Origin: Botryllus schlosseri
Lineage: Eukaryota
Direction: 5' to 3'
Length of the DNA: 64,000 bases
NCBI GenBank assembly: GCA_051294905.1
Contig: CM119371.1
Span: 248,001-312,000, forward strand
Positions 4,771 through 55,701 of this stretch are shown here, piece by piece. How positions within the stretch are numbered: the stretch's first letter is position 1; each line of letters opens with the position of its first letter. The position numbers and the translations under genes are program-made. The notes beneath the pieces are model-generated. The model did not search any database, was not told the DNA's origin, and was given only the letters and a program-made list of their open reading frames with translations.

Positions 4771-4799
4771 TGAAATTGACTAGACTTTACTATAGTCGA

Positions 4800-7905: not shown

Positions 7906-8764
7906 CTACACTGCGTCGATCTTTGTATTGGAACAGGAGAAGTTGCTGAAATAGGATGGCATCATTTTATCAAAGAACTCATAGAGTAAACATGTCAGCC
8001 GATTCCAAAGAAGAGCAACACATTCGACTCCGCTATTTTGGACAGTGTTGTTCTGCTCCCTTTTGGCCAAATTAAGTCGAGACACTGCTTTGTTCAAGTT
8101 AACCGGAAATTTGGTTGCTCCTTCATGGCCGTGCATTACTGTATTAGGACTGTTCAAGAATAAGCTTTTTTCTGGATTCCAGCCATTCGGTGAATAAATA
8201 GTCAGGTTACCCTAAAAAACGCTCACACCAAATTTGGTTCAATCCTGACAAGTATAAGGCTCCGCAGATCCAATTAAAATTTTCAATTTGCTAGGGAAGA
8301 TATAAAAAAAAAATCGAGGATGATAATCAGAGAATTATCAACGAAAAACTCGAATAAATCTGCTAGTTGGGATTGACTGAAATTTGTTTTGCATCGTTTT
8401 TGAAGACAGCTCAACAATATCATGGGGTTGACAGTAACAATTTGAATTTTTTTTTTTTCAATTTGACCTAATAAATTAAATATTTGAATCTAATTTTGAA
8501 AAATTGTGTAGCTTCAACTGCGATTCTGATCTAATTTGAAAAAAAAACAGTCTAATTATAATTCTAAATGTAGTACAATTTTTACAAAAAAAAAACTGTA
8601 GCTTTTAGCTATCATTCTAATTCCAATCTAATTTGAATTTGACAATGATCTAGTTGTCCCAATCTGGCTGAGAAAACCCAGTTACCATGTGAACCCCCGT
8701 TAGAAACCCCTGCTGCAAGTTAGCTTAACGAGAAAGTATGCTAATAGTTGTGGTTATTATATAT

Positions 8765-8910
8765 CTTCAGCTTTTGACACTTCTAGTAAGATTGTCAGCA
8801 CATAATCGAGTTGTACGTTTGCATTTTTCAGTTTGGCCCGATTTGCATTTTCAATCTTCACATGTTTCTTCCATTCTGTTGCGTTGAGACCTTCAGGGGC
8901 TTGCGTTTCC
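8765..8910 (-). pseudogene. RBM28: RBM28/NOP4-like linker/RRM4-start pseudo-exon
   Basis: Reads TQAPEGLNATEWKKHVKIENANRAKLKNAKRTTRLCADNLTRSV, resembling RBM28 '[47 protein letters not shown]'. Confidence 0.7.
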
Positions 8911-9859
8911 ACACAGAAAAATCACAGGTGGTCATGTAGTCTGCATCGCACTTTTCTACAAGTGTTAATCGGAGGTGGCTACCTAGCTTCACGCTGGGTT
9001 GCTATGACTTGATTTACCGATGACTCAACTTGACTCGAGTGATTTTTTCAAATAACTCTACTCGAATAAATTGATGTGTTGAATCAACTTGCCTCGAGCA
9101 ATTTCTTCAATAGACTTGACTTTAGGATTACCATATTCTGGAATCGGGAAAGGGGGACACTTTTTCAAAATATTTAAACTTGGAGAAGTCAAAATTATGT
9201 CAAAATTGTAGCGTTAGGCCAAAAATTGTCTAAATTGTTTACAAAGTAATAACTTTTTTGCAACCTGCGTTTCGTTCATTTTGTATATTTTGCAGTGTCT
9301 GTGAACTTGTCATTTGACATTTCACCGCTTGTAGCCTACTTTATAGGCCTGCAGTTGTAGACGGCCCATGGTATGCTTATTGTGAATCGTAAACATTCAA
9401 ATGAAACAAATAGGTCAACATGGTGCTCAACGTACCGCAATATCCCAACTGAAGCTACACTGCGTGGACATTGCAAGGTTCTTATATCAAGAAGTGTTGT
9501 GTTACTAAACATTTTAATTATTTCTACCATAATCCGTGGTGTAACTTCTGCAATTCTTCATAGGGCCAGATTTTCTTAAAATAAAGTTAGAAAAATTTTC
9601 AGTTATCGATGCAAAAAAGTTTTTTCAGGCCATACTAATTCGTAAGGTAAGACAGTTCCAACTGGAAATTAAGACAATGCTAACGTTATGTGGGAAAACA
9701 CCTCATTTGTATACATTTTTTTTTTAAATCAGTCAAAAATGTCAAAATATTGATTTTTAGGTCAAAATCGTTCATTTTTAGGTTAAAAATAAGCCTAGTC
9801 AAAACCATACACGTCATCAAATTCTCCGTTGGGATTGCCAGCATTCTGATTGCATTTGC

Positions 9860-10264: not shown

Positions 10265-10520
10265 TAGAGGTGGACCGATATCGACCTAGCCGATGATCGA
10301 GGCCAATGTTTGGAACGTCGCTCCGAGTTCTCAGTCTCAGGAAATCGACGACACAAAGGGGGCTGCGGGACAGATTGCCCTTGCAGGACAAGTTGAACTG
10401 GGTGAGCATGCAGTGAAACTATGCTTCCTGCATCACAGCCTACCTCTACTGGACTCATCTGTGATTCTGCATCATCTTTTGCTCTTTGGGATACTCCACA
10501 TTTCAATGAATGTGCACAAT
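10265..10520 (+). mobile_element. hAT-derived element end with C-terminal dimerisation-domain remnant
   Basis: Starts tagaggtggaccgatatcg, like the element at 23346-23836, and shares its internal 'tgcatgctcacccagtt' segment in the opposite orientation. The translation AAGQIA...GEHAVKLCFL resembles a hAT C-terminus. Right end not located. Confidence 0.5.
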
Positions 10521-22883: not shown

Positions 22884-23081
22884 TCACTCACAGTATAAAA
22901 CTTCCAACTCAGTATCGAGATCATTTGCAATCTTCTTGACTTTCTGCAATTCGTCTTCTTTCAACATATCATCTTCTTCGTAATATATCAATGTAACTTT
23001 CTTCAAATTTGAGTTGTTGATGAGAGACGAAATGTCAACGAGAGAAGCAGGATGCCGTAATATACATCGGATATATTCGAT
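22884..23081 (-). CDS. NLR (NACHT-LRR) gene, predicted terminal coding exon
   Basis: ctgcag acceptor, phase 0, 65 codons IEYIRCILRHPASLVDISSLINNSNLKKVTL...EVLYCE then stop. LRR-like 'NLKKVTL'. Phase compatible with exon 39979-40146. Confidence 0.6.
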   Translation of the reverse strand: MEYIRCILRHPASLVDISSLINNSNLKKVTLIYYEEDDMLKEDELQKVKKIANDLDTELEVLYCE

Positions 23082-23345
23082 CTGCAGTGAGAAATTATTA
23101 CTATTCATATTGTGTATTACAATGATGCTTACCACTATTGTTGACCATTTCATCAGGGGCCATGATGTTTTACAATATACTTTAGATCGTGGGTGTCAAA
23201 CATACGGCCCACCGGCAACATCCGGCCAGCTAGGATATTCTGAAAAAATGGCTGTATTATCTGGCACATTTCTAACAAATGTCGAGAATTTTAGTACGAA
23301 ACACTTCCATTCTCTCAAGACAGAGAATGCCGAGCATGTTCATAG

Positions 23346-23836
23346 TAGAGGTATTCCGATATTGATTTTTACAGGCCGATACCGATAAATCGGCACACTC
23401 ACAAGGCTGATACCGATATCATAGGTCAATATTAATACAGAAGGAGCGGAGAACAATTTCACCAAAAATATTATATACCAAGCAAGAGAGCACTTGTTCA
23501 TGTCACAGAAAGCAGAAAAACAAACAAGAAACTGAAATTGAAAAGCAAAACGTGATACAGAATTAGGGATCATTCCAGGAAAAGTATATTGTAATGCAGA
23601 AAACAAATATTTTCTCTGCATGCTCACCCAGTTAAACTCGTACTGCATGGGTAAATCCGTCATATATCACCCTTTGCGTCGTAGATTTCTTGAGATTGAA
23701 AAATCGGAGCATTGAATTTCCGAAATTTTCGAATTTTTTTAAAATATAAAATATCGGCCGCGATATTTTATATAAGCGGGAAAGCTCTAAATATCGGCCT
23801 CGATAATCGGCCATGTCGATAATCGGTCGACCTTTA
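23346..23836. mobile_element. hAT-type MITE nested in the 23188-39789 element
   Basis: Ends tagaggt...ccgat / atcggtcgaccttta with perfect 8-bp TSD GTTCATAG (23338-23345, 23837-23844). Confidence 0.85.
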
Positions 23837-23904
23837 GTTCATAGGCCAAATTATAACCATCCGACAGTGGTGTTGAGGTTACACTGTAAGTAGTATAATA
23901 GATC

Positions 23905-24490
23905 GGTCGTGGTGTGCCATTGTGGCTTATGGGTGCGGCGGCACGGTGCCGAGAAACTCGTGGTGGCACGGTGACCCTTATCTCTTATGGGTGCGGTGGC
24001 ACGGTGCCATTGTGTCTTATGGCTGTGGTGGCACGGTTACCTTTTCGGGTATAGGCTGCGGCGGCACGGTGCCGTGAAAACTCGTGGTGGCATGGTTACC
24101 TTTTCGGGTATAGGCGCGGTGACATGGTGACCTTTCAGGTAGAGATGATTTGACTAACGTTGTGGGTATAGGCGGCGGCGGCACGGTGTCAGGTAGAGAT
24201 GATTTGACTAACGTTGTGGGTATAGGCGGCGGCGGCACGGTGTTGAAAATGCATCAGGTATGGTAAATAGTGACGTGAATGGTTCTTAGTTAATGTGTAT
24301 ATTACAAATTATTAAATATGACCGATTCGAGTTAATCCCAACGTTTACGGTGAGTACGACAATGATATATCGTTATTCTTATGGCGGGGGTGGCATGCGG
24401 CTATTTGTGTCTTGTGGTCGCACGGTAACCCTTTCAGGTAGAGATGATTTGACTAACGTTGTGGGTATAGGCGCGGCGGCCCGGTGTTGA
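23905..24490. repeat. Subterminal GC-rich GG(C/T)GGCACGGT motif array incl. 54-bp tandem duplication
   Basis: About a dozen ggcggcacggtg/ggtggcacggt motifs and an exact 54-bp tandem unit starting at 24136 and 24190. Mirrored at ~38240-38830. Confidence 0.85.
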
Positions 24491-27269
24491 ATATGTACCA
24501 GATGAATAGTCATGTGAATGTACCTTTGTTAATGTGTATATCGTAAATTATTATATATGATGTAGTTTAGTCGTGACAAATGACCGATCGCGTTCTAAGT
24601 CTTTCCTCACTATTGATCACTAGCTGAATAGTACTTTCAGATCGGGTTATTCGCGCCTTGTATCCCGCTGTTTCGCACCTACAGAATAGTCGTTATTCTT
24701 ATGGGCGCGGCGATGATTCGTACTTTCGTTTATAGACTGCAGGCGGCATGTCGTACTTTCACCAAAAAGGGTGTGAAATAGTTTGCTAAATCTAGGAATC
24801 AGTCGCATAGTAATGTTTGGACAATTAGATTACCACAGTACCGGCGTAGACGGCGATACGAATATCAACAATAGCCGCGTTCACAAACTAACACTTCAAA
24901 TAGGTGTGAAATAGGTTGCAAACCCCGCGATTGCTGACAAGATAATGTCTCGGACATACGCGACTTGATGTTACAGGCATGCCGATCGCTCACGAGGTAT
25001 TATTTTGGTAATTAGTTTGTCGCAGATCTAGATTTCACTGGTAAGATTTAATATGTAACGAATAACAGAACCGTCGCAGACGGTGATTCTGATACCGACA
25101 AATTCTCACTTATTTCTGATCCAACCCTAATCCTCTGTGAAGTTGACGCTTATTCAAAAAGGTGTGAAATAATTGTAAAAATCCTACGTCGCTGACACGA
25201 TAATGCATCAGACATAGCGATCTAGTTATAGTACGGTGTCGGAATCCATTCGCGAGATGTTCTATAGGTAAATTGAGATAATCCAAAACCGAATATTTTG
25301 ACTTTGGCGTAGTGTGAATTGAAATAGGATTGACAAACATGACTACCAACTTTCCCACAGTCCCGTTTCGATATTATACGTACATTGATTTGAAACAAGT
25401 AATGAAACATTGCAACTCTATTCGCGATCCCGCTTTCCGTTTGTCAAAGAGATATTTTAACATCTTACCATACTCAAAAGAATTATTCACAACATTAACA
25501 ATTGTTAAAAATCTAGTTTTCACTTACTTGATTATATCACTGCAACTCGCAAACTTGAATTAATTCATCCTGAATGTACTCATATGACCGATAATTTTTA
25601 TTCGACTGTAAAAGTCGTTACTAATCTATAACACAAAGTAATTACTACTCGGTACATATACGACTTGACATAACCTATTAGATTTTGAGTATACGAGATT
25701 TGAATGTCTGAACAATAACTGAGAATTAAATAATCGCAAGTGAATCCGTATATTACAGCGTAAAAGATATTGGAATGTCAGCAACTCTGTACGGTCATAG
25801 TTACTACCACATTACCTAATTTACCCGGCCAACTCGTCATGATCATCCCTGAAATCAACACAAACATGACCACTGACTTGAGTTAACCACAAAACAGCAT
25901 CAAGTTTTAAATCCACTTGTAGCTTACGGATTATTTGAATGCTGGTTATGTTTTGTTGTAATTGAGTGTACAGAAATAATATTACATCTCGACATCTTAC
26001 CATCTTACGATATTCAAAGAGTCAACCTCAAAAACATTGTCAAGTAAATCCGTTACCCGACCAAATCAAACAGTATCAGTATGAAAAACAGCCAAGCATA
26101 CACGAGTCCATACAATCACTAAAACCTAAAATCCATAACAAGTTCGGTTTTACTCATATCCCTACGACGCATCTTTTTTTATTCAACTTTAAAAGTCGTT
26201 ACTATTCTGTAAGATAGAGGAATTACTACGTGGTATATTCTGCAAGACAAAGTAATTATTACTCGATATATTTTGTAAGACAAAAGTAATTACTACTCGG
26301 TGTAGGTGACTTGAGAATAACATAATATGTTTGAGTATACGAGATTTGAAAGTCTGATCAACGTAGTTGCGACTTCATTTCTTACAATCGAACGCTGGTG
26401 TTATATTCAAAGTTATCATGCTGTAAACATAAGGATTGACACATTGATTTGACATATGAGATTTTGTAATAGTTGATCATGACTTAATTAATAAATTATT
26501 TGCGTTAATTAGACCCGGCGTTGTGGTAAATGTTATGACAGCAACAAACTTTTCAGTACCATTGTTATTAACATATTGAGTTGTAAACTATGTGTGTCTA
26601 AAATGTTCTCGATTGGAAAATTATTCAACCTTGGTACAAATCACTCTGGGTATTACGGATATCAGAAAATATTTTACAAATGTAATTGTTTCCAGTACTC
26701 AAGACTAAAGATGAAACAACAATTTCGTTTGCTGATTAACAACCGGTGCAATACTGTATTGTCGGGATCTGCGGTGAGAATTGAAACATACGCACATTAC
26801 GCAGTACGAAAATATCACTTCGGCTCCGGGAGGAGTAATTTAATCCGTGTTAAACTCTGTTCACGCTCTCTGTCGAAAATGTGCGAAATTTAAAAACATT
26901 ACGAGGTCACACTCTAAGACTTTGATCATCAAAAAGTAAATAGAGGTATCTTTACTGGACGGATTCTATTCAACCGGTCTTGATTAATACAAAACCCCCC
27001 ATAACAATAATATCGACGTATGTGCTACACTGAAATCTACAAAAATGTGTTTGTATTGCTGTTCATAGTAGCGATATCGATTTGAACCTCCAGAATAATT
27101 GTCATCATGTAACCAAACTAAGGAAAGTTGTTGTCAATTTGTATGATGTTCACTGAATGCGTACTAGAACTAATTGTGTAACGCACACGATCAGAGAAAT
27201 TGGAAATTTTCCCATTGTCATTCGTCACAATACTCGGCCACTAAAATACGTTACTTGGATGTGATTGAA

Positions 27270-27508
27270 TCGCTGGTAGTTAACTCGATTAATCAAACCC
27301 CTAAGAAATTTCACTCACTCATTGGATATTAAACAGTGTCGCCTAATCGGTGTGGGTCGCTTTTTCTAAATACAAATCATACCTGACCATCGCTGATAAT
27401 TAACTCGGTAAATCAAAACCCTAAGAAATTTCACTCACTCGTTGGATATTAAACAGTGTCGCTTAATCGGTGTAGATCGTTTTTCTAAATGCAAATCATA
27501 CCTGATCA
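27270..27508. repeat. 120-bp tandem duplication inside the Polinton-like arm
   Basis: ctaagaaatttcactcactc..ttggatattaaacagtgtcgc starts at both 27301 and 27421. Mirrored at ~34275-34505. Confidence 0.85.
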
Positions 27509-29339
27509 ACAGAAAACAATTTTCACTCACCTTGTAATGAAGCCAAGTGGTGGACCTTCGTTCAATATTTTGTTTGTGTCAAATACTTTGCAATAAACAC
27601 ACTGGAGTGGTCGAGCTTTACATCAGCAGACTGTAATCTGTAAATCAAGCTTACATCCGACTTGTAACTGTATCGTTTACCTAACCGAGTTGTATGCAGA
27701 GTTTGATATTTTTTGTTATTTGGTAATTGCTGAATATACTACTTCGAAATACCCCCTTGAACGTAATTTCCATCATCGTAATAATCGAAGTACATTTGTG
27801 TCGAATTCGTAACAACCGACTATGACATGATAAATTTTTTACAAGTTATGCTTGGAAGGTTGGTTGTATATCACGAAAAATAATTACCGCTCATTTTGAT
27901 ACTGTTATCCATTGTTCGGTATTTTCAAACGAGTAAAATTTATTACTTGAGTTACTCCGCTTAATGCAAATGTAAACACAACCGCCTTTCAACATCACAA
28001 AGACATCGATACAAAGTATACAAGCAAACGCAACAAGTTTTACTTTTGTAGGTTGTGTATGATTATCCTGCATAACTCATTTCTTACCAAAGTCATATGA
28101 AATATATTCATGTTACACGAAAATATTCCCATGCTACAAACCTATACAAGGATTGGTGGCGCTTTCAAAATGTTTCGATACCACAAGAACTTTATTGTCT
28201 GAATAATCAAATAGTTCAACACAGAACTAGTACTAACAGAAACATCAGAGTTGTTTACACAAAACTTTGTATGTGTACAGTATGCGAATACCATGTGTAA
28301 GTCCAGCACAATTTTGGTATCCATCCGGGTTTAGTTAACACAATTTACGACACCGAGGTCACCTCATCTTTCGTAAGACAACAAACCAACCAAGGTTTCA
28401 GGATATGTCCATGTCATAGCAATAAATCAGCTACTCCAACAACAGAGTACATATGTTTTCTAGTTACGGTGCTTACATCTTACACACAAATCAATCTACT
28501 TTGCTAACAAAAAGTGCTGGGTCATCAAGTGATTGCCCTAACAACAAAACAGCTAAACGTACTATCATACAAAATGGCCGTTATAGTCACAAGGTACATG
28601 ATACAAGTAACAAGTCTCGAGAATCCAGTTATTGAAAAAACATGAAAGTGTTTCTCCTGCGCCAAGTCGTTATGTTGACGAAAGCGTATATTGTAATATC
28701 ATGATCGATTTGCATTCGTTGGTCACAAAATGTCACTACTCTAAATAATTATTTTTCACTCAAACACAAACACATACTTGTCACCAATCGTTTTCATCAA
28801 GCACGAGTTCAAGAAACCTGCTACGACATGAATTCCGATTTAGTTTTACAAATATTTTATAATTGTTTTTTATTAACACTATATCAATGTCATCAAGTTG
28901 AGTGTTTACGATATTAGTGTGTAGGTGTGTGTGTCATACTTGGAGGATCCGTATTACAATTGACTCGAATTGACTAAATGTAAGAAGGGTTGAAATGTTT
29001 CGAATCGATTCATAAGTGGTCTTCGTTGTGGTTTTCGTCGGACATACAGCACGAACTAACTGTAGACTCCTCTCTGTTGTGCAGCTACTCGGTAATCGAA
29101 ATGCATTAACATGTAAACAACCATCTTGTTTCGTTACACCAAACATATGTTCACTGTCGCGATACTCTGCACAAGACGTGCAAATCCTTTTCACACTCGT
29201 AATAGTATACCAACGTCAAGCGATAACGTTTAACAAGACCAATGACACTGAACCCACGACGTTTACCTATGTAAAATTACCACTTTCACTTGTCAGTCCA
29301 TCGTTTACCTGACTAAACATATTATTTTCCTTTGGAGAT

Positions 29340-29850
29340 CTGACGTTTACCCAGAGTAAGAAACCATTTTCACTTGTAAATATATTTTTTCCTTGGCTAA
29401 CAAACCTTTTTTCACTTGGAAATATATTTTTTCTCTGGGTAACAAACCTTTTTCACTTGGAAATATATTTTTTCTCTGGTTAACAAACCTTTTTCACTTG
29501 GAAATATATTTTTTCTCTGGTTAACAAACCTTTTTCACTTGGAAATATTTTTTTTTTCTCCGGTTAACAAACCTTTTTCACTTGGAAATATATTTTTTCT
29601 CTGGGCAACAAACCTTTTTCCCCGGGTAACAAACCATTTTTCGCTGAGCAACAAGCCATTTTCACTTGGTGGTCCGTCGTTTACCTGAGTAAAAATATCA
29701 TTTTCCTTTGGAGATCTGGCGTTTACCCAGTGTAACAATGCATTTTCACTTGGAAAAATACTTTTACCTAGAGTAACTAATCATTTTCTCCTGGGTAACA
29801 ATCCCTTTTCACTTGGAAATACATTTTTTCCCTGGGTAACAATACCATTT
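29340..29850. repeat. ~40-43-bp minisatellite inside the Polinton-like arm
   Basis: Tandem units aacaaacctttttcacttggaaatatattttttctctgg(g/t)t. Mirrored at ~32255-32765. Confidence 0.9.
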
Positions 29851-31528
29851 TGAAATCTGACAAACACACCGGCCAATTTGATATTTTTGTATATTGTTCC
29901 AACGAACAGTGACGGAAATATACACAGACTACCGGTTTCAGAGTATACCCATCGGTCGTATCACATCAATATCATCGGTTAACCACATACAATATGCTCT
30001 TGTACACCGAAATGCACGCTTTGGAAAATTGGACAATAGGCTTCGATAGTTCTGTGATGTCCGGGTTCGTGCTTTGGATTTTCCAGAGTCAAAATGTCTG
30101 AATAAAACACCTTCTCGACGATGGTCGGTATGTGGATAACGGTGTTCGGAAAACGGTTGGGTTTATGTCACCCATCGCGATAACAACTCCAGGTCGAGTT
30201 TTCTCCCACATGTTTACTATATTGTGTCTTTATTGGTCAATGTATGTCTCGACATTCAGTTTGAAATCGGAAACCCTGATAAAGTATGTAACCGGATCCG
30301 GATATCAACTGTGAATCGATAAACCAATGGACAATATTCAAAGTAAACATGTTACACCCTGTGTTTCCACTAAAAAATACCATCCAGACATACGTCGCGC
30401 TTGTTTGCCCACATCAGTATACGCGCAAATGGAGGTGTGTGACATGGCATGCAATGTGTTGGTATACAAACATCGGGGAGTAAGCCTTCGATCCACAGAC
30501 ATTATCATAGCCGGTAGTTTTGATGTAGATCGAATGTCACCTGATAAAAATGTCATACCAATAAGCCACATTGCAGGGTCAAATGACTGTCGCGCTATTA
30601 CATCGATATTTCGGTACCGTTCACTGATTTACTCGATGGTGTTATCGTGTTGTAACATTGCAAGATAGTCATGACCCTATCTCCGGACAGACCACCCAGA
30701 GCAGTTGGATGCATCGGTCAATATCCGTCGTGTTGTCGACACCGAAGTTCTCTGCTGTACAGCGTTTGACCAATGTGAACTATCGAAGTATGGGTGCTCG
30801 AAATGATTGTGATCAGTCTTTCAGTCACGATGAATGGATGTCGCTACTCCCACATAACGACTCCAGATAAATATCGTGAACCGCGATTCTGTAAATCTCG
30901 GACTGATACTGTGATCCAGTAAGGTGTGTTTCTGTGGAATGAAGACTGCAATCGTACACCGCAATAGAACACTACCTCGTGATTTCACACACAATCATAA
31001 AACACATCGTCGTAAGGGTCCAGTTCGTCCGGTGACATTTCGAAACGGGCATCACCACAAGAGATCGGTAACATTTTGAAACGGCATCGTCACAAGGCTA
31101 TTGACGTCGATTCTGTTGGTCATGTCAATCCGTTTCACAATCCGCCGTTTCTCAAGTCCCTGCACCATAGTGTTACGACACAGACAAGATGCGATGGTGG
31201 AAATAATAAAGTACGGAAGGCACACTTTGGTGTTATTTGACATGGATTTTACACCCGACGAACCTTACATTCGAGCGATGCATTGGAATGGCGCTTGCAT
31301 TATTGACGTAGAAGGAACAGAAATGTATCGATTTGTCGGTTTCGTACATATCCAACAAAAATCTGGGTATATGAGTGTGCACGGTTCGCATATTCGACTG
31401 TGAACGCTCTATTGGTATATGTTGTACTCTATTTGTATATGTTCACTTTCACCGTCGTGCGAATAACCCATGTTACGGTTCCATGTTTGTGTGTCGGTAT
31501 GTCATACTTCAGATTGACTCAGAGTCAT

Positions 31529-34500
31529 TGCAATGTGGCTTATTGGTATGACATTTTTATCAGGTGACATTCGATCTACATCAAAACTACCGGCTATGAT
31601 AATGTCTGTGGATCGAAGGCTTACTCCCCGATGTTTGTATACCAACACATTGCATGCCATGTCACACACCTCCATTTGCGCGTATACTGATGTGGGCAAA
31701 CAAGCGCGACGTATGTCTGGATGGTATTTTTTAGTGGAAACACAGGGTGTAACATGTTTACTTTGAATATTGTCCATTGGTTTATCGATTCACAGTTGAT
31801 ATCCGGATCCGGTTACATACTTTATCAGGGTTTCCGATTTCAAACTGAATGTCGAGACATACATTGACCAATAAAGGCACAATATAGTAAACATGTGGGA
31901 GAAAACTCGACCTGGAGTTGTTATCGCGATGGGTGACATAAACCCAACCGTTTTCCGAACACCGTTATCCACATACCGACCATCGTCGAGGAGGTGTTTT
32001 ATTCAGACATTTTGACTCTGGAAAATCCAAAGCACGAACCCGGACATCACAGAACTATCGAAGCCTATTGTCCAATTTTCCAAAGCGTGCATTTCGGTGT
32101 ACAAGAGCATATTGTATGTGGTTAACCGATGATATTGATGTGATACGACCGATGGGTATACTCTGAAACCGGTAGTCTGTGTATATTTCCGTCACTGTTC
32201 GTTGGAACAATATACAAAAATATCAAATTGGCCGGTGTGTTTGTCAGATTTCAAAATGGTATTGTTACCCAGGGAAAAAATGTATTTCCAGGTGAAAAGG
32301 GATTGTTACCCAGGAGAAAATGATTAGTTACTCTAGGTAAAAGTATTTTTCCAAGTGAAAATGCATTGTTACACTGGGTAAACGCCAGATCTCCAAAGGA
32401 AAATGATATTTTTACTCAGGTAAACGACGGACCACCAAGTGAAAATGGCTTGTTGCTCAGCGAAAAAGGTTTGTTACCCGGGGAAAAAGGTTTGTTGCCC
32501 AGAGAAAAAATATATTTCCAAGTGAAAAAGGTTTGTTAACCGGAGAAAAAAAATATATTTCCAAGTGAAAAAGGTTTGTTAACCAGAGAAAAAATATATT
32601 TCCAAGTGAAAAAGGTTTGTTAACCAGAGAAAAAATATATTTCCAAGTGAAAAAGGTTTGTTACCCAGAGAAAAAATATATTTCCAAGTGAAAAAAGGTT
32701 TGTTAGCCAAGGAAAAAATATATTTACAAGTGAAAATGGTTTCTTACTCTGGGTAAACGTCAGATCTCCAAAGGAAAATAATATGTTTAGTCAGGTAAAC
32801 GATGGACTGACAAGTGAAAGTGGTAATTTTACATAGGTAAACGTCGTGGGTTCAGTGTCATTGGTCTTGTTAAACGTTATCGCTTGACGTTGGTATACTA
32901 TTACGAGTGTGAAAAGGATTTGCACGTCTTGTGCAGAGTATCGCGACAGTGAACATATGTTTGGTGTAACGAAACAAGATGGTTGTTTACATGTTAATGC
33001 ATTTCGATTACCGAGTAGCTGCACAACAGAGAGGAGTCTACAGTTAGTTCGTGCTGTATGTCCGACGAAAACCACAACGAAGACCACTTATGAATCGATT
33101 CGAAACATTTCAACCCTTCTTACATTTAGTCAATTCGAGTAAATTGTAATACGGATCCTCCAAGTATGACACACACACCTACACACTAATATCGTAAACA
33201 CTCAACTTGATGACATTGATATAGTGTTAATAAAAAACAATTATAAAATATTTGTAAAACTAAATCGGAATTCATGTCGTAGCAGGTTTCTTGAACTCGT
33301 GCTTGATGAAAACGATTGGTGACAAGTATGTGTTTGTGTTTGAGTGAAAAATAATTATTTAGAGTAGTGACATTTTGTGACCAACGAATGCAAATCGATC
33401 ATGATATTACAATATACGCTTTCGTCAACATAACGACTTTGCGCAGGAGAAACACTTTCATCTTTTTTCAATAACTGGATTCTCGAGACTTGTTACTTGT
33501 ATCATGTACCTGGTGACTATAACGGCCATTTTGTATGATAGTACGTTTAGCTGTTTTATTGTTAGGGCAATCACTTGATGACCCAGCACTTTTTGTTAGC
33601 AAAGTAGATTGATTTGTGTGTAAGATGTAAGCACCGTAACTAGAAAACATATGTACTCTGTTGTTGGAGTAGCTGATTTATTGCTATGACATGGACATAT
33701 CCTGAAACCTTGGTTGGTTTGTTGTCTTACGAAAGATGAGGTGACCTCGGTGTCGTAAATTGTGTTAACTAAACCCGGATGGATACCACAATTGCGCTGG
33801 ACTTACACATGGTATTCGCATACTGTACACATACAAAGTTTTGTGTAAACAACTCTGATGTTTCTGTTAGTACTAGTTCTGTGTTGAACTATTTGATTAT
33901 TAAGATACATGAACACCCATTCAGACAATAAAGTTCTTGTGGTATCGAAACATTTTGAAAGCGCCACCAATCCTTGTATAGGTTTGTAGCATGGGAATAT
34001 TTTCGTGTAACATGAATATATTTCATATGACTTTGGTAAGAAATGAGTTATGCAGGATAATCATACACAACCTACAAAAGTAAAACTTGTTGCGTTTGCT
34101 TGTATACTTTGTATCGATGTCTTTGTGATGTTGAAAGGCGGTTGTGTTTACATTTGCATTAAGCGGAGTAACTCAAGTAATAAATTTTACTCGTTTGAAA
34201 ATACCGAACAATGGATAACAGTATCAATATGAGCGGTAATTATTTTTCGTGATATACAACCAACCTTCCAAGCATGATTTGCATTTAGAAAAACGATCTA
34301 CACCGATTAAGCGACACTGTTTAATATCCAACGAGTGAGTGAAATTTCTTAGGGTTTTGATTTACCGAGTTAATTATCAGCGATGGTCAGGTATGATTTG
34401 TATTTAGAAAAAGCGACCCACACCGATTAGGCGACACTGTTTAATATCCAATGAGTGAGTGAAATTTCTTAGGGGTTTGATTAATCGAGTTAACTACCAG

Positions 34501-37500
34501 CGATTCAATCACATCCAAGTAACGTATTTTAGTGGCCGAGTATTGTGACGAATGACAATGGGAAAATTTCCAATTTCTCTGATCGTGTGCGTTACACAAT
34601 TAGTTCTAGTACGCATTCAGTGAACATCATACAAATTGACAACAACTTTCCTTAGTTTGGTTACATGATGACGATTATTCTGGAGGTTCAAATCGATATC
34701 GCTACTATGAACAGCAATACAAACACATTTTTGTAGATTTCAGTGTAGCACATACTTCGATATTATTGTTATGGGTTTTGTATTAATCAAGACCGGTTGA
34801 ATAGAATCCGTCCAGTAAAGATACCTCTATTTACTTTTTGATGATCAAAGTCTTAGAGTGTGACCTCGTAATGTTTTTAAATTTCGCACATTTTCGACAG
34901 AGAGCGTGAACAGAGTTTAACACGGATTAAATTACTCCTCCCGGAGCCGAAGTGATATTTTCGTACTTTGTAATGTGCGTATGTTTCAATTCTCACCGCA
35001 GATCCCGACAATACAGTATTGCACCGGTTGTTAATCAGCAAACGAAATTGTTGTTTCATCTTTAGTCTTGAGTACTGGAAACAATTACATTTGTAAAATA
35101 TTTTCTGATATCCGTAATACCCAGAGTGATTTGTACCAAGGTTGAATAATTTTCCGATCGAGAACATTTTAGACACACATAGTTTACAACTCAATATGTT
35201 AATAACAATGGTACTGAAAAGTTTGTTGCTGTCATAACATTTACCACAACGCCGGGTCTAATTAACGCAAATAATTTATTAATTAAGTCATGATCAACTA
35301 TTACAAAATCTCATATGTCAAATCAATGTGTCAATCCTTATGTTTACAGCATGATAACTTTGAATATAACACCAGCGTTCGATTGTAAGAAATGAAGTCG
35401 CAACTACGTTGATCAGACTTTCAAATCTCGTATACTCAAACATAATATGTTATTCTCAAGTCACCTACACCGAGTAGTAATTACTTTTGTCTTACAAAAT
35501 ATATCGAGTAATAATTACTTTGTCTTGCAGAATATACCACGTAGTAATTCCTCTATCTTACAGAATAGTAACGACTTTTAAAGTTGAATAAAAAAAGATG
35601 CGTCGTAGGGATATGAGTAAAACCGAACTTGTTATGGATTTTAGGTTTTAGTGATTGTATGGACTCGTGTATGCTTGGCTGTTTTTCATACTGATACTGT
35701 TTGATTTGGTCGGGTAACGGATTTACTTGACAATGTTTTTGTGGTTGACTCTTTGAATATCGTAAGATGGTAAGATGTCGAGATGTAATATTATTTCTGT
35801 ACACTCAATTACAACAAAACATAACCAGCATTCAAATAATCCGTAAGCTACAAGTGGATTTAAAACTTGATGCTGTTTTGTGGTTAACTCAAGTCAGTGG
35901 TCATGTTTGTGTTGATTTCAGGGATGATCATGACGAGTTGGCCGGGTAAATTAGGTAATGTGGTAGTAACTATGACCGTACAGAGTTGCTGACATTCCAA
36001 TATCTTTTACGCTGTAATATACGGATTCACTTGCGATTATTTAATTCTCAGTTATTGTTCAGACATTCAAATCTCGTATACTCAAAATCTAATAGGTTAT
36101 GTCAAGTCGTATATGTACCGAGTAGTAATTACTTTGTGTTATAGATTAGTAACGACTTTTACAGTCGAATAAAAATTATCGGTCATATGAGTACATTCAG
36201 GATGAATTAATTCAAGTTTGCGAGTTGCAGTGATATAATCAAGTAAGTGAAAACTAGATTTTTAACAATTGTTAATGTTGTGAATAATTCTTTTGAGTAT
36301 GGTAAGATGTTAAAATATCTCTTTGACAAACGGAAAGCGGGATCGCGAATAGAGTTGCAATGTTTCATTACTTGTTTCAAATCAATGTACGTATAATATC
36401 GAAACGGGACTGTGGGAAAGTTGGTAGTCATGTTTGTCAATCCTATTTCAATTCACACTACGCCAAAGTCAAAATATTCGGTTTTGGATTATCTCAATTT
36501 ACCTATAGAACATCTCGCGAATGGATTCCGACACCGTACTATAACTAGATCGCTATGTCTGATGCATTATCGTGTCAGCGACGTAGGATTTTTACAATTA
36601 TTTCACACCTTTTTGAATAAGCGTCAATTTCACAGAGGATTAGGGTTGGATCAGAAATAGGGGAGATGTGGTACCGATGGATCACTGGGACCGAAAATAC
36701 TTGAAAAATTCACCATGATGATTCCATGATTACACTCCGTGAATTTGTCTACAATTACATGCTTTTGGAATCTTTCCTCACATGCAAAAAAATTCGACCT
36801 GCGTCAGTTATGCGGTCCGTGACGAATGATTTACGTTTTAGGGGGTGTAAAGTAAATTTGGATCGACATTTGCATTTTTCTATATCACCTTTCAGACTGA
36901 CAAACCCGCCATGATTTTTGATGTGAAGTATAAGGCTTGTATCAAGGTATGTAACGGCACATATTTTTTTAATCAATACCATCATCGAGTGGACTATTTC
37001 TAGTCAATTACAATATTTATGGGGTGGGGGACCTATGGTACCATCGCCAAATCAAGCAAAATAGATGGACCAACTAATCACTTAACAACAGAAACTCGCC
37101 TACATATATATAGGCTGTAAATCAAAGTTACCTGTGGTGTTTCATCGCTATCACGAGGTAGTTGAAAGTCAAAATGTCGATTTGCGGGTAATATATATGT
37201 GGCATTAATTTTGTAAATTTAGGCGTAAATCAAAACATGATTTGATGCCAACATTTGAGTTGATATAATCTATTTTATTCTTGAAGATCGTAACGAAACA
37301 TTCTTCATTGGCTTGCTGTAGCTTAGCTTATAGTACACAACAAAACAATTGACAAATTTGAGTTTTTGAGCGTATGAATCATAGGTTCCATGGCCGTGTG
37401 CCATAGGACCCACCGGGTGGGGACCGATGACACGTTCGAGCAACAAATTTTAAACGTTTATAAATATTTTTTGAAAAGGCGGATATTCATGTAAATGTCT

Positions 37501-38843
37501 GCGATAGGTAGAGCTTGTATCGAAGTGTTGAGACAGCAAAAGATATGCTATTCTCGGCTGAAGATTTGAGGGCCAGAGACCATTTTGCAATTTTTGATCC
37601 ATCGGTACCACATCTCCCCTAAGTGAGAATTTGTCGGTATTAGAATCACCGTCTGCGACGGTTCTGTTATTCGTTACATATTAAATCTTACCAGTGAAAT
37701 CTAGATCTGCGACAAACTAATTACCAAAATAATACCTCGTGAGCGATCGGCATGCCTGTAACATCAAGTCGCGTATGTCCGAGACATTATCTTGTCAGCA
37801 ATCGCGGGGTTTGCAACCTATTTCACACCTATTTGAAGTGTTAGTTTGTGAACGCGGCTATTGTTGATATTCGTATCGCCGTCTACGCCGGTACTGTGGT
37901 AATCTAATTGTCCAAACATTACTATGCGACTGATTCCTAGATTTAGCAAACTATTTCACACCCTTTTTGGTGAAAGTACGACATGCCGCCTGCAGTCTAT
38001 AAACGAAAGTACGAATCATCGCCGCGCCCATAAGAATAACGACTATTCTGTAGGTGCGAAACAGCGGGATACAAGGCGCGAATAACCCGATCTGAAAGTA
38101 CTATTCAGCTAGTGATCAATAGTGAGGAAAGACTTAGAACGCGATCGGTCATTTGTCACGACTAAACTACATCATATATAATAATTTACGATATACACAT
38201 TAACAAAGGTACATTCACATGACTATTCATCTGGTACATATTCAACACCGGGCCGCCGCACCTATACCCACAACGTTAGTCAAATCATCTCTACCTGAAA
38301 GGGTTAACGTGCGACCACAAGACACAAATAGCCGCATGCCACCCCCGCCATAAGAATAACGATATATCATTGTCGTACTCACCGTAAACGTTGGGATTAA
38401 CTCGAATCGGTCATATTTAATAATTTGTAATATACACATTAACTAAGAACCATTCACGTCACTATTTACCATACCTGATGCATTTTCAACACCGTGCCGC
38501 CGCCGCCTATACCCACAACGTTAGTCAAATCATCTCTACCTGACACCGTGCCGCCGCCGCCTATACCCACAACGTTAGTCAAATCATCTCTACCTGAAAG
38601 GTCACCATGTCACCGCGCCTATACCCGAAAAGGTAACCATGCCACCACGAGTTTTCACGGCACCGTGCCGCCGCAGCCTATACCCGAAAAGTTAACCGTG
38701 CCACCACAGCCATAAGACACAATGGCACCGTGCCACCGCACCCATAAGAGATAAGGGTCACCGTGCCACCACGAGTTTCTCGGCACCGTGCCGCCGCACC
38801 CATAAGCCACAATGGCACACCACGACCGATCTATTATACTACT
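31529..38843 (-). repeat. Right arm of giant inverted repeat (7,315 bp incl. 960-bp MITE)
   Basis: Reverse complement of the left arm except for a 960-bp insertion (36660-37619), loss of 350 bp corresponding to 27500-27849, an extra 20 bp at ~33901-33920, and scattered substitutions. Confidence 0.95.
36660..37619. mobile_element. Non-autonomous DNA transposon with TA TSD (Tc1/mariner/pogo-type MITE)
   Basis: Perfect 25-bp TIR GGGGAGATGTGGTACCGATGGATCA with TA duplicated on both sides. The empty site is preserved in the left arm at ~25110. Confidence 0.92.
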
Positions 38844-39978
38844 ACTGTAGACACCATATCAGCAACAAGTCAATGCAATTGACAATAGTGTTACCATATG
38901 ACCTCTTTTTTCAAAGTATTCTCAGAGCAAGCACAAATGTCCTCTTCTTTGTGAATTTATCCTCTGTTTTGAAAATTTTGGTTGAATGTATGTGAAAATT
39001 AAACTGAGAAATTGGAAATAAGTACTGAAGTAACGCTCCGGCAGGTGTTTCGAGAGTTGACCCAGAATGGTGACCTTTTTTTTACTCAACCAACTACAAA
39101 ATTGGAACAAATTTGACAATTTTTTAAAATTTAACTTCTGCATTGCAAGTCTGAATTTTATTTAAATGGTATCCTCTTTTCAGATCCCAAAACATGGTAA
39201 CCCTAATCGACACTAAATTCTGAGAAGGCGAAAAAGTGCTCGATGAGTACACAGTTACATGCAAAAACGGACCACAAAGTAGTTATATGTAGAAGTGGAT
39301 AATATAATTATTACACCAAAATATAATTCAAATATCTGTGGTTGCACTCCTTTTGCGCTTATGAGTCAACATCTCCTTGGCTTCCAGAGAAACCCGAATC
39401 AAGATGTAAAAATGATGAAGCAAATTTCAACGTCCACGTTTACGGTTAAATCGCTTGTATTTCTCACAACGCTTACACAGGAATGTCGGATTCCGACTAA
39501 AACAAAGCAAGCATGGCATTTCGCCAACGTATATCGTCGGTCGGCCAGTCATCGTAATTTAGCCAATTCGGTTGTTTGCGAATAATAAAGGTATTGATTG
39601 ATTGGAACCAGATGGCCGTGATATAACGTGATTATTATAATGAGTATAAGCTTTATAATTAGGTATTCAAGTGAAAAACAAGGGCATGGATTTTAAGGAA
39701 AAATTTTGGAATCATTTGACTGGTCCGGCCCGCGAGTGCTCTGAAAGTTTGACCATGACCCGCAACGTCAGTTGAGTTTGACACCCCTGCTTTAGATGAA
39801 TATATTACCAGGAATCAGGAACTCCGCAACTGCGGTGGATATCTCGGGCATGGAATAGAACTTAATTCACGTGGATGGGACACGTACTGTACGGGCAGAA
39901 CTAAATGATAAACGCGCGATGGTTTGAGGAGAACGTTCAATATATCCAATGCAACTGAAACTGGATGATAAGTACTAC

Positions 39979-41641: not shown

Positions 41642-42115
41642 CGTTAGTGATGGGGTGAATCAAATTCGAAATGTAAGAACTATTTTGTCTGTATGACGTA
41701 ATAATAACAAAAACAAACAACTAGTAGACGGGCTAGATACGGTAGTAACGGTACAAAACAAACGTTAACGAGTACATATTCGGTTACAAATAACCGAAAA
41801 CACAACACATAACATTAATGAAATATTCCAAGAGTGTAGAGGCGTTCCTTCTGGCGACAGAGAATCGGCTTTCGTAGCTTTATGATCGTAGATTCCAGGA
41901 CCTTTAAATGAAAAAGAGAACGGCCACGAGCGAGTATAGAAAATTTACTGTCATTGTAATGATCAGCACATTCTGGATGGGATAAGAGATGCTGTCCAAT
42001 AGCCGAATTACAAGCAGTAACTTGATCATAATCACGCAGTGTGTCAACAGACTGCGATGAAGGAGTTATCCCATCCAGAATGTGCTGATCATTACAATGA
42101 CAGTCCGAAATCTCT

Positions 42116-43396
42116 ATGTGTTTGTTTGATATATCTAGTTTATTCACGAACGTGCCAGTTCAAGAGACTATAGAGATTTGTGCCAATGAACTCTATGGTG
42201 GTGTCCTTCCATCTCCTCCATTCTCAAGGTCTTCTTTTGTTAAATTAATGCGATTGATCACTTGTGATGTCGAATTTAGTTTCAATAACACCATATATAC
42301 ACAGATCGATGGTGTTGCAATGGGATCGCCGCATGGTCCCATTCTGGCTAAGATTTTTGTGGGGTATCACGAAAAACGGTTATTCGAAGATATTGATCGA
42401 CCATTAATGTATCAAAGATATGCTGATGACACCTTCGCCATATTTGAAAATGAATCCCAGTGTGATTTGTTTCTGAGCAAATTGAATGGTCTTCACCCAT
42501 CACTGAAATTCACCATGGAAAAAGAGGTTAATAATTCATTAGCATTCCTTGATGTTGTAGTGGAAAAGACGGGTGCTAATTTTGTTACATCAGTTTACCG
42601 TAAGCCTACATTCAGTGGGCAATACATTTCGTGGGATTCTTTCTGTCCAGTAAAACGTAAAGTAAATTTGATAAGAACTCTGGTACACAGGGCTCTGATG
42701 ATTTGTAGTAAAGTCAAACTTGATTCTGAATTGGAGAACATTCGGTCAATCTTTCAGTCAAATGGTTATCCCGATCATATCATTAAAATGACCATAGATC
42801 GTAAACTCAAAGATTTCAGAAAAGTTAAACCGTTTGGACCTAGAAAATGTCCTGTTTATTTGCATCTTCCTTGGATTGGGAAAGTGTCCAACAGGTTTGA
42901 AAAACAAATTAAATCGTCAGTGAGCCATTGTTTTTCACAAGTAGAACCACAGATAATCTTCATGACGAAATCTCTGATGCCTGCAACGCAAAAGGATGTC
43001 CTACCTGCGACAAATCAAAGCAACATAATATATGAATACACGTGCCGATGTGACAGTCGGTATGTAGGTCGCACGTCTCAGCGCTTGCAGCAAAGAATTC
43101 GCCAGCATGTCCCACGGCAAATTAGAATAAATAATGTTTCTCCAACTCCTTCATCGCAGTCTGTTGACACACTGCGTGATTATGATCAAGTTACTGCTTG
43201 TAATTCGGCTATTGGACAGCATCTCTTATCCCATCCAGAATGTGCTGATCATTACAATGACAGTCAATTTTCTATACTCGCTCGTGGCCGTTCTCTTTTT
43301 CATTCAAAGGTCCTGGAATCTACGATCATAAAGCTACGAAAGCCGATTCTCTGTCGCCAGAAGGAACGCCTCTACACTCTTGGAATATTTCATTAA
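42116..43396 (+). CDS. Penelope-like reverse transcriptase + GIY-YIG endonuclease (N-terminally truncated)
   Basis: RT motifs FDISSLFTNVP, YTQIDGVAMGSP, RYADDTF, LAFLDV, VYRKPT. GIY-YIG NIIYEYTCRCDSRYVGRTSQRLQQRIRQH with CCHH residues. Confidence 0.93.
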   Translation: MCLFDISSLFTNVPVQETIEICANELYGGVLPSPPFSRSSFVKLMRLITCDVEFSFNNTIYTQIDGVAMGSPHGPILAKIFVGYHEKRLFEDIDRPLMYQRYADDTFAIFENESQCDLFLSKLNGLHPSLKFTMEKEVNNSLAFLDVVVEKTGANFVTSVYRKPTFSGQYISWDSFCPVKRKVNLIRTLVHRALMICSKVKLDSELENIRSIFQSNGYPDHIIKMTIDRKLKDFRKVKPFGPRKCPVYLHLPWIGKVSNRFEKQIKSSVSHCFSQVEPQIIFMTKSLMPATQKDVLPATNQSNIIYEYTCRCDSRYVGRTSQRLQQRIRQHVPRQIRINNVSPTPSSQSVDTLRDYDQVTACNSAIGQHLLSHPECADHYNDSQFSILARGRSLFHSKVLESTIIKLRKPILCRQKERLYTLGIFH

Positions 43397-50522: not shown

Positions 50523-51496
50523 TCAGTGCTGTCGAAGAAAACGAATGTTTAGTTATATTGATAGGCCAAATTATACCCACTATGGTGGCAAAATGTGCAC
50601 ACTGAGTTCACAGGTTTGTGTAAAATGTATCAAAAAATATTTATTTATAGAGGCGAAAACACAATGCAAAATCGTGCAAAAGGTGACAAAAATATGGTTC
50701 TGATTTCTGTTTTTGCAGCGCTATGTCAGTTGTGGGTCATACGGTCCGTGCTTCCCATAGACACCTGAAATGGGATTCAATATGGATGAACTAAATTCAA
50801 ACGTCACCGTTTATAGTTAAATCCATCTTATTCCTCACAACGTACAGTCAGGGCTAACGCCAAATCAGGACTAAAACAATAAGAGAGCGTAGAAGCATAG
50901 CAACTTATCGTTAGGGCCGCTGCTTTAGCGGTTTATTCATCTATTCAACTCGCAAATCGTACTTCTGCCAAATTGATTGTTTAGGAATTAAATTGTTACT
51001 AGGTTAGAACCGATATGATCCGTCAAACAATATAATATGCTATCCTGTACACCGGCTTCATAATGAAGTAGTACAGTGGCAAAAAAGGGCATTGGATTTG
51101 AGGTTACATTTTGGAATAATTTCAATGGTCCAGCCCGCGAACTATCTGATGGTTTGAATCCAGCCAGAGACGCAAAGTTAAGTTTGACACCCCTAATCCA
51201 AATCCTATCCTCGTATCAAGATGATTTCATTCAGGCGCCAGTATTAAATGGGAAATATGTCAGTAGATGGAGAAATTAGGATTTGATGCATGATACGATT
51301 TTAGTTGACGGAGAGGCTACTGCTTATTTACCAAGTCACTATCAGTATACTGCCGGAAGTCACGCTACTCATAGTGGATGACCTCGCACGTTGATTATAC
51401 GGTACGTGGACATGGCACTCACTCGTGCCAGTCATACCTCTCGTAATTTACCTACCGAACAACGTATCAACTCAAGTGTTTTTTGCCTAAACCTAC

Positions 51497-53927: not shown

Positions 53928-54258
53928 AACGATCACAGTGAGTAAACTCAAGATGTGATCTAACCGTTAGGCTTATCAGTGCTATCTCGGGGAAAGAATT
54001 ACCGTATGTAGCATACTGCCAAAAAAATAGGAAGATCTGAGATATTCATGAAAAGTGTCAGTTTAAATATCACAGTAATATTATTTTGTTTTTCGGGTTT
54101 CGCAATTTAAAAAAGACGAATACGGTTTCACTGCATTCTATCTGCCTTGAAATTGAATCGATGTTATTGGTTAACGTATTCAGGAGATAAATATGATCCT
54201 TCTGCAGTGAATCAAGCGAATGCGAACACGATAAACTATATTTTCCGACGAGACTCAC

Positions 54259-55701
54259 CTTCATGAAGATTATCCGGCGTTTCGTCGTATATGATGCCGC
54301 ACACGAATCTGCGGACGACCGACCATCGCTCTTTGTGCAAGTGTTTAGAGTTGAAGCTGATGAACTTTGTATACGTCATTTCGACTACAAAGCCCGCGGC
54401 GAGGAATTCCTGGAGACTTTGATGGCAGAAAAAGAAAATGAAACTGCCATCCAACAGATTGCAACTGAGGAGGTTATTTCCTGGAACCTTCATCATAAGA
54501 TCTTGAACTTCATCTTTTGAAAGTCTAAACCTCTTCAAATCATTTTCAGAGAATGTCACTCTCCCTTCTTTCATGCCAAGATATGCCATTGCTTTCAATT
54601 TATTGATAATCCCGGCAATAGCATCAGCCTTTCTAATGTTTTTCACGCTACTTAAAGTGGATACAATTATTTTGTAGAGTCCTGTGACCGTCTTGGGAGG
54701 AGGCTCGTTCGGATTCTTGGCCATGATCACAGCGGTTAAGACCAGAAAAACGGGAATGGAAACTAAATTGATCAGCCTTGGTGACATCGTTTCTATCCTC
54801 GCCCATGCTTCATCCCCATGCTGATGTATCAGAAACACAAAAAGCTTCTTTGCGTCATCTAGATTCAAACCAGAAAGTGTGATGATGTCGGTGGGTCGAG
54901 CTTCCGCGGGCAAATCCGAGACTTGGAATTCTCGGGAAGAGATGACGATTTTTGTATCAGCGAGCAGATTACGTGAGAGGATGTTGTACATGATCGTTGC
55001 TGCTTTGGCTTTACTATAAGGATTTATGTTCTCGTCGCCATCTCTGTTGATTTTCCAAGTAGCCTGATCCAAACCGTCGAAATATAAAACTGCTTCTGAT
55101 TGATGTTCGATCAACCACTGATACGCATTATCCTCGTCGATCTTATTCTGAAAGAGGCCTCCGAAGAGAAATTTAGATGGTTTCATGGATCTTTTATCTC
55201 GCATGCCTTTTATTTCTATATAATGTATCAATTTATACTTGAGCTGAGAGGGGCTTGCAGTGGCTCCTGTATTCGTGAGTGAATGCCCTAAAGTTTTTCT
55301 AGCGATTCTGCGCATGAGAGTGGTTTTCCCAGATCCTGCAGACGCAACTATAGCGGTGATAGAACTTTCCCCGATGATAACTTGTTGTAAAACTTCATCT
55401 AGCTTGAGGAATTTGTTGTCGTCAACTTTTTGTCGGAGGAATCCGAACTCCTTTCTGAATTGATTTTTAACCACCTCTTCCTTTCGCCAGAAGAAGAATT
55501 TTCTTTTTACTGCCACTTCCATTTCGTGCACCTCTTCATAATTGCCTTTGAAATATTCCGACTTAGTGACTCTTCTCATCTAGGGATGTACTTGGAAATC
55601 AGGTTTGTTGAGGTCGTCGGCGCCGATGTCTTCGAGGATTCTGTCCGCCGTCTTTTGCGACGCATTATCGTTTATGCACTTTATCAGGGCTGAAGCTTTT
55701 T
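54259..55701 (-). CDS. NLR gene, NACHT NTPase exon (ORF 54236-55579; in-frame TAG at 55580-55582)
   Basis: Walker A ASAGSGKTT, Walker B VLYFDGLDQ, sensor-1 IVISSR, helical-domain IPVFL and winged-helix FCHQSLQEFLAA. Acceptor ttccag at 55702, donor gtgagt at 54258. Confidence 0.92.

Follow-up and report, generated by a model that had tools for sequence, protein, structure and literature searches.

How does a chromosome come to hold almost 15 kb of DNA that is nearly all inverted repeat, has no recognisable gene and carries at its ends the marks of a large virus-like transposon? We address this question at one locus of the tunicate Botryllus schlosseri, within a 64,000-nt stretch of contig CM119371.1 (assembly GCA_051294905.1, positions 248,001 to 312,000 of the forward strand), hereafter the window, whose first letter is position 1. 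The element lies at 23889-38843. It is one insertion, bounded by the hexamers (AGT)2 and (ACT)2 and by a 6-bp target-site duplication (TSD). One non-coding segment of ~7.6 kb, an arm plus a centre of 953 bp, makes up the first part of its body; the rest repeats the initial 6.7 kb of that segment in inverted orientation. The two arms have diverged since their formation, by 24 substitutions, a nested miniature inverted-repeat transposable element (MITE) and four other insertions or deletions (indels). The reading we favour, with about even confidence, is that this is a real, gene-less, non-autonomous element with ends of the Maverick (or Polinton) type, that it became a palindrome by copy-back synthesis and that it integrated in that form.

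Mavericks, also named Polintons, are regarded as viruses with a second life as transposons. To our knowledge, there are hardly any observations of their replication by protein priming, their packaging or their parasites. An element without genes that retains only the end signature of a Maverick would offer a handle on which part of the end suffices for replication and integration, and it would also bear on capsid-constrained genome size and on the existence of defective-interfering or satellite genomes of Mavericks, as in adenoviruses and RNA viruses. These questions are approachable here because the palindrome runs the whole length of the element and its sequence is highly repeated.

The inverted-repeat search of the window returned six collinear segments, with complementarity of 99-100%, that together span 23889-38843 (14,955 bp), and a BLAST comparison of the element with the window gave the same picture (98.7-99.7% identity per segment). 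The left arm (23889-30575, plus strand, 6,687 bp, non-coding) and the right arm (31529-38843, minus strand, 7,315 bp, which repeats the left arm in inverted orientation) enclose a unique centre, or loop (30576-31528, 953 bp), which has a GC content of 0.443 vs 0.377 in the arm and whose sequence is found once in the window. Global alignment of the left arm with the reverse-complemented right arm shows 24 mismatches in 6,333 aligned columns (99.62% identity; 0.38% substitutions, 11 transitions and 13 transversions) and five indels: 962 bp present only on the right, 350 bp only on the left, 20 bp only on the right, and two of 3 bp and 1 bp. An initial annotation of the window had described two near-identical inverted arms of ~6.7 kb around a 953-bp spacer. 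The alignment bears out this arrangement, and the length holds for the left arm, whereas the right arm is longer because of its nested 962-bp insertion. In the coordinates of the element itself, the layout is a segment from 1 to 7,640 followed by the reverse complement of 1 to 6,687; the total comes to 13,993 bp without the nested insertion and to 14,367 bp with all arm indels restored.

The indels record what happened to each arm after the palindrome had formed. The nested insertion in the right arm (36660-37619, 960 bp, non-coding) has perfect terminal inverted repeats (TIRs) of 25 bp and is flanked by TA at 36658-36659 and 37620-37621; the left arm lacks it, and the unoccupied TA site is visible at the matching place. 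It is a MITE of the Tc1/mariner type that arrived after arm formation. The segment private to the left arm (27498-27847, plus strand, 350 bp) has a short microhomology at its junction and is either a deletion from the right arm or an insertion into the left one. That the centre might be the same sequence as the nested insertion was considered and rejected, as it and the MITE share no similarity, though both measure 953 nt between repeat arms. Within one arm plus the centre (23889-31528) there is no inverted repeat of 18 nt or longer, so the arm is not itself a complete element with TIRs, and a head-to-head pair of two whole TIR elements is rejected on the same ground. Both arms carry an array of 41-bp tandem repeats (29357-29620, plus strand, 6.4 copies, with its mirror at 32435-32747 in the right arm). 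CpG occurs at 1.19 times its expected frequency in the arm and at 1.31 times in the centre, compared with 1.0 in the window, and 23889-31528 shows no sign of methylation-driven CpG decay.

A palindrome of this size could be a product of the assembly, either a fold-back chimera or two haplotypes of a single-armed locus joined in inverted orientation. Public sequence data bear on this. The runs X1, X4 and X12 (the last under another species label) and the raw RNA run X23 were compared at a likeness of at least 90% with 22900-31800, which comprises the left flank, the left arm, the centre and 272 nt of the right arm; the results on depth, joints and loose ends given below cover that interval. The differences between the arms, in substitutions (0.38%) and in the presence or absence of segments including the MITE, are allele-like. 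Differences of this kind occur between alleles in marine invertebrates. The centre, moreover, is without read-level support in the public contigs, and the best-matching run, X1, may be the source sample itself. An artefact is nevertheless very improbable in our judgement. At each end the inverted repeat breaks off precisely where a 6-bp direct repeat begins, and beyond this the flanks are unrelated and do not mirror each other; the arms are separated by 953 bp of unique sequence. The 20-bp indel (33902-33921, minus strand) is supported both ways: the left arm in the window lacks it, whereas contigs from X4 and X12 continue past 28204 into these 20 bp, as the right arm does. The left arm thus has a private 20-bp deletion, and the arms are two distinct copies with separate histories, not one sequence read twice.

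The ends of the element are sharply defined. The sequence ACTGTA stands at 23883-23888 and again at 38844-38849, as a perfect direct repeat. Inside it lie the 5' end-motif AGTAGT, that is (AGT)2, at 23889-23894 and the 3' end-motif ACTACT, that is (ACT)2, at 38838-38843 (both read on the plus strand). The left boundary reads ACTGTA followed by AGTAGTATAAT, and the right boundary ATTATACTACT followed by ACTGTA. Among flank lengths of 2 to 10 tested at the boundary, a direct repeat exists at length 6 only; the termini and the TSD agree with the initial annotation. A match of six out of six by chance has a probability of 3.5e-4 from base composition and of 4.0e-4 from random pairs of 6-mers of the window. 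The inverted repeat stops exactly at the TSD, since the next bases outward are A on both sides. The terminal 18 nt, with up to three mismatches allowed, match the window twice, at the two ends of the element (0.07 matches expected). The same 18 nt have no match in viral contigs, and neither a 21-nt terminus nor a 22-nt word of the internal repeats has a match in metagenome contigs.

These ends match a published signature. Among the end signatures of vertebrate Mavericks, the one seen most often is 5'-(AGT)2//(ACT)2-3' combined with a perfect 6-bp TSD, and the motif (AG)3 or (AGT)2 together with such a TSD was present in 628 of 2,863 inverted-repeat candidates (PMC8097293). Polintons are likewise described with a 6-bp TSD, a terminal tandem repeat of 1-3 bp and a racket-like model of the single strand (PMC4196379). 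The marks named in the initial annotation (a 6-bp TSD, AG termini and terminal micro-repeats) are therefore on record for Mavericks (PMC8097293). At our locus the end-motif is exactly (AGT)2//(ACT)2 in the sense of PMC8097293, and ACTGTA has the 6 bp given for Polinton and Maverick TSDs (PMC8097293, PMC4196379, PMC10045372). Intact vertebrate Mavericks measure 12,723-24,620 bp, with a mean of 16,862 +/- 1,678 bp (PMC8097293), and Polintons are given as 13-25 kb with TIRs of 100-1,500 bp (PMC10748475). All three lengths of the element (14,955, 13,993 and 14,367 bp) lie within the published range, in agreement with the earlier remark that its native length of ~14 kb is near that of autonomous Polintons. 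Given the exact (AGT)2//(ACT)2, the perfect 6-bp TSD and the length, the ends are likely to be of the Maverick type. The vertebrate Mavericks of Barreat and Katzourakis (2021, PMC8097293) thus resemble the element in the 6-nt end-motif, the 6-bp TSD, the possession of TIRs and the length range. They differ from it in that intact ones have eight core open reading frames (ORFs) where the element has no genes, and in that their TIRs measure 46-1,447 bp, whereas here TIRs of 6.7 kb make almost the whole element an inverted repeat; subterminal 8-mer arrays, very high repetition and a tunicate host are features of this element.

Two other families were considered as a source of the ends and rejected. 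IS3EU/GingerRoot shares the 6-bp TSD and has a transposase of the integrase lineage, but its termini are TA..TA, occasionally TG..CA, where the element has AG..CT (PMC10045372). Ginger1 and Ginger2 have TGTNR termini and TSDs of 4-5 bp.

A different origin of the ends has to be weighed in view of what lies just inside them. Direct repeats with periods of 32, 54 and 58-65 nt fill ~650 bp at each end (23889-24560 on the plus strand, mirrored at 38172-38843 on the minus strand). Within them the 8-mer GGCACGGT occurs seven times at 23940-24241 in one orientation, and its complement occurs seven times in the right zone; each end thus has seven copies in its outer 350 bp, in the same sense relative to that end, and the 8-mer is absent elsewhere in the 64 kb. 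Subterminal arrays of same-sense 8-mers resemble the transposase-binding arrays of cut-and-paste elements. The element could accordingly be a cut-and-paste transposon of the foldback type from a different DDE superfamily, perhaps one not yet described; its transposase would bind the subterminal 8-mers, and the likeness of its ends to those of Mavericks would be a coincidence. The absence of genes, a very high copy number and many deletion derivatives all suit such a transposon, and the architecture does too, for Galileo and Foldback (FB) also combine very long TIRs that contain tandem repeats with a short unique middle (PMC4168063). Galileo (of the P superfamily) and Drosophila FB are alike also in abundant non-autonomous copies and in structural variants that are attributed to template switching in repair (PMC4168063), and unlike in TSD length and end sequences. 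On the other side, we find neither a 7-bp nor a 9-bp TSD at the boundary of the element. Galileo has a TSD of 7 bp and FB one of 9 bp, both different from 6 bp, and their TIRs reach ~1.2 kb, compared with 6.7 kb here. The combination of exact (AGT)2//(ACT)2 with a 6-bp TSD is, moreover, a specific published signature of Mavericks (PMC8097293), and the cut-and-paste group described with a 6-bp TSD, IS3EU/GingerRoot, ends in TA..TA (PMC10045372). We consider a DDE transposon of this kind quite unlikely.

If the ends are those of a Maverick, the next question is what kind of Maverick this is. Counted from stop to stop, 24 ORFs of 80 aa or more overlap the element, and the longest has 126 aa. None of the 87 ORFs of at least 45 aa in the left arm, the centre and the nested insertion has a match at the Pfam cut-off in a search that extended to an E-value of 1, in which the best E-values were 0.011 and 0.013. 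Nor does the ORF of 126 aa resemble a protein (ESM Atlas recognition 958, best score 0.80). The description of the element as gene-less with no ORF above ~115 aa therefore stands in its first part, as no Pfam match was found, and needs correcting in its second. Scans of the window with Rfam (at the gathering threshold) and ARAGORN (for tRNAs) gave no match. The virion module, that is the major and minor capsid proteins, the packaging ATPase and the adenoviral-type protease, has no match in the element or the window, a negative that is limited by the possible lack of a Pfam model for Maverick capsid proteins. Polintons by definition encode the protein-primed DNA polymerase pPolB and an integrase (PMC5499653). 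Membership among autonomous Polintons fails, because the element and the window have no pPolB, integrase or virion gene; if it is a Maverick, the element can only be a non-autonomous derivative of one.

The layout of the element, with two inverted copies of one end, a unique loop and no genes, is that of a copy-back or snap-back genome, and the formation of such a genome from a Maverick end can be outlined. Since the element has no coding capacity, all the enzymes involved would have to come in trans. In protein-primed replication, the end-motif's repeats are expected to be used for jumping-back (PMC8097293), and the doubled AGT would here act as the origin for it, primed by the terminal protein and pPolB of a helper. 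The strand-displacing polymerase, or else fold-back repair synthesis, would have left its template at a distance of ~7.6 kb from one end and turned back on the new or displaced strand, copying it as far as that same end, which would yield two identical ends for origin and integration. The retroviral-type integrase of a Maverick encoded elsewhere would have made 6-bp staggered cuts and joined these ends to the chromosome, the element entering as a palindrome. A single strand could fold on itself into a hairpin with a stem of 6.7 kb and a loop of 953 nt, which would be an extreme of the racket structure of Polintons (PMC4196379).

A possible trace of the strand switch is found where the arms meet the centre. 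The inverted repeat resumes there for 6 nt after an offset of 7 nt (ATGACT at 30583-30588, AGTCAT at 31523-31528); these 6 nt may be a relic of the repeat, the microhomology that primed a strand switch, or the result of a small later indel. Multiple displacement amplification (MDA) uses the phi29 polymerase, which is of the pPolB type. More than 85% of the rearrangements in MDA are inverted sequences with intervening deletions, primed at complementarities of 2-21 nt (PMC1855051), to which the 6 nt at the inner arm edge may be likened. MDA is an in-vitro reaction, and that the pPolB of a Maverick would do likewise is an analogy. Another analogy, in form only, is with the copy-back and snap-back defective genomes of RNA viruses: these too consist of one genome end and its complement on either side of a loop, lack complete genes and are replicated in trans, but they are RNA, produced by an RNA polymerase, and do not become integrated (PMC6140465).

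What was copied back is less simple than first proposed. The initial annotation had taken the element for a copy-back of a helper genome, and in its plain form this proposal does not survive, because the 7.6 kb next to the end have no decayed Maverick gene, though the family is young. The parent would rather have been gene-less already, or the body would be foreign or host repeat DNA that had become attached to a Maverick end. For the latter case the adenovirus recombinant SYREC, described below, is a precedent.

Whether the palindrome formed before or after integration is a separate matter. Extension of the TIRs in situ leaves the same ends and the same TSD, so the TSD is no proof of transposition as a palindrome. 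A non-autonomous element with ordinary, shorter TIRs may thus have integrated, with a later break whose repair copied the left half, either through annealing of the TIRs with fold-back or break-induced synthesis or through gene conversion proceeding inward; the right half would be replaced, and the ends and the TSD would remain untouched. An identical TSD and two intact ends are what this model predicts, and for the structural variants and long TIRs of the foldback-like Galileo, template switching and abortive gap repair are the accepted explanation (PMC4168063).

The repeat family to which the sequence belongs offers evidence on both sides of this alternative. Of 24 public runs listed, 20 contain part of 23001-33000; X1 ranks highest, with 0.68 of the words, and runs under two other organism labels contain 0.30 and 0.28 of them; no RNA run is among those listed as containing it. 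Contigs that match 22900-31800 number 150,275 in X1, 10,992 in X4 and 1,553 in X12. All 30 bins are covered, and 42,833 of the 150,275 from X1 are at least 99% alike. The summed word depth in X1 is 20,000-520,000 inside the element, compared with 2,000-9,000 in the left flank, which is itself repeated. The sequences of the arm and the centre thus come from one repeat family or several, very abundant, young and variable in structure, which are present in independent samples and in two related species. The family contigs are structurally unstable, as synthesis in place would have it: internal deletion joints are many (15 joints are listed and 296 more exist), and alternative junctions recur with a consistent consensus.

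The distribution of depth argues, weakly, in the other direction. The centre is as repeated as the arms, with a summed depth of ~103,000-113,000 in X1, and the bins of the inner arm have ~1.9x the depth of the three centre bins in X1, ~1.4x in X4 and ~2.3x in X12. No loose end falls on either junction of the centre (30575/30576 or 31528/31529) among the 24 best-supported ones listed (2,642 more exist). An inner arm about twice as deep as the centre and junctions free of listed loose ends are expected of a palindrome that is family-wide, and they hint, weakly, that the centre belongs to the same repeat family as the arms. Formation in place is for us a possible but rather unlikely account.

Several observations weigh against the copy-back reading that we prefer to it. 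Enzymes and structural proteins are missing throughout: pPolB, integrase, protease, ATPase and capsid give no Pfam signal in the 87 ORFs of the element nor, as genes of a helper, in the window's 40 ORFs of 90 aa or longer, and the 7.6 kb that adjoin the end are without recognisable Maverick-derived coding sequence. The TIRs of 6.7 kb exceed the published maximum of 1,447 bp by a factor of 4.6, where ~50-1,500 bp would be usual, and the arrays of GGCACGGT are reminiscent of transposase binding sites. The end-motif is documented in vertebrates, and the host is a tunicate. Tunicates are the sister group of vertebrates, and we counted this toward a vertebrate-type Maverick signature here. Mavericks are mostly low-copy, with an average of 22 and a median of 8 per vertebrate genome (PMC8097293), in contrast to the very high repetition at this locus, which may stem from unrelated repeats in the body. 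Depth varies ~20-fold between bins, so the body may be a mosaic of unrelated repeats. The element itself was seen in one copy, within the 64-kb window. The fold-back, the right terminus and an empty site find no independent support in the interval compared: no end junction or empty site is visible, none of the 15 joints listed (296 more exist) changes strand, and the matching pieces listed (24 of 107,283) are all at most 377 nt, too short to display a fold-back.

A further step beyond copy-back would make the element the integrated, defective, satellite-like genome of an endogenous chordate Maverick virus, with one viral end, a fill of non-coding or host repeat DNA, copy-back to a length that fits the helper's capsid and amplification to at least hundreds of copies. 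We regard this as unlikely. The size variation of Mavericks, of ~10%, suggests that their genome size is constrained (PMC8097293). For a possible counterpart one may turn to adenoviruses and to the recombinant SYREC. SYREC, the symmetric recombinant of Deuring, Klotz and Doerfler (1981), is reportedly a palindrome of genome length in which both ends are the left end of the virus. It joins adenovirus type 12 DNA with DNA of human cells and depends on a helper (PMC2396429). If the satellite interpretation is true, the two would have in common a protein-primed replicon, one terminal segment, a non-viral fill, a giant inverted repeat of about genome length and dependence on a helper. SYREC differs in being an extrachromosomal, packaged laboratory isolate, whereas here we have a chromosomal insertion with a TSD that is known from sequence alone. 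The element would then be the first Maverick parasite of the defective-interfering type and a natural counterpart of SYREC, would speak indirectly for protein-primed replication and packaging in Mavericks, and would have been amplified far beyond the copy numbers of Mavericks themselves. In a literature search that left Repbase outside its scope, we found no gene-less non-autonomous Polinton or Maverick and, among the 25 of 486 papers listed, no palindrome of a whole such element; the one Polinton paper that deals with palindromes concerns terminal palindromes of 52 nt.

The 6.7-kb hairpin, if it is ever transcribed, would be a potent source of double-stranded RNA, for which Mu killer of maize provides an analogy. 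In the raw RNA run X23, of which ~6 in every 100 reads were examined, nothing points to transcription of this copy; 287 of 12,895,792 records matched, 281 of them partly and 200 at a likeness of 90-95%.

Abundance also differs between samples. The ratio of depth in X4 to depth in X1 is 3.0-3.6 in the bins of the flank and 0.5-1.7 in those of the element. Measured against the flank repeat, the sequences of the element are therefore several times commoner in sample S1 than in S2, which may reflect either a recent lineage-specific expansion or an effect of contig building. In organism B, the centre is relatively rarer still.

The element sits in repeat-rich DNA, since both of its flanks are old dispersed repeats, of two different families, with second copies 67-82% identical. 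The left flank (23541-23836) has its second copy in the window at 10265-10486 on the minus strand (76-82%). We considered this relative as an empty site and rejected it, as it does not continue into the right flank. The right flank (39315-39788) has its second copy at 50686-51194 on the plus strand.

Two coding regions lie further to the right. At 42101-43393 (plus strand), an ORF of 431 aa has a match to RVT_1 (E 9e-07, 29.2 bits, where the gathering score is 29.6) and a weak match to GIY-YIG; this predicted combination is typical of Penelope-like retroelements. At 54239-55579 (minus strand), an ORF of 447 aa with NACHT and NOD2 winged-helix domains is an exon of an NLR-type immune receptor. 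It has 17 relatives at an E-value of 1e-20 or better, of which 13 come from Logan assemblies (36-52% identical) and four are named, three from Styela clava and one from Clavelina lepadiformis (26-38% identity). The named ones are ascidians, which points to an ascidian host. The ESM Atlas ranks a cnidarian cluster first for this ORF, and we gave more weight to the sequence search.

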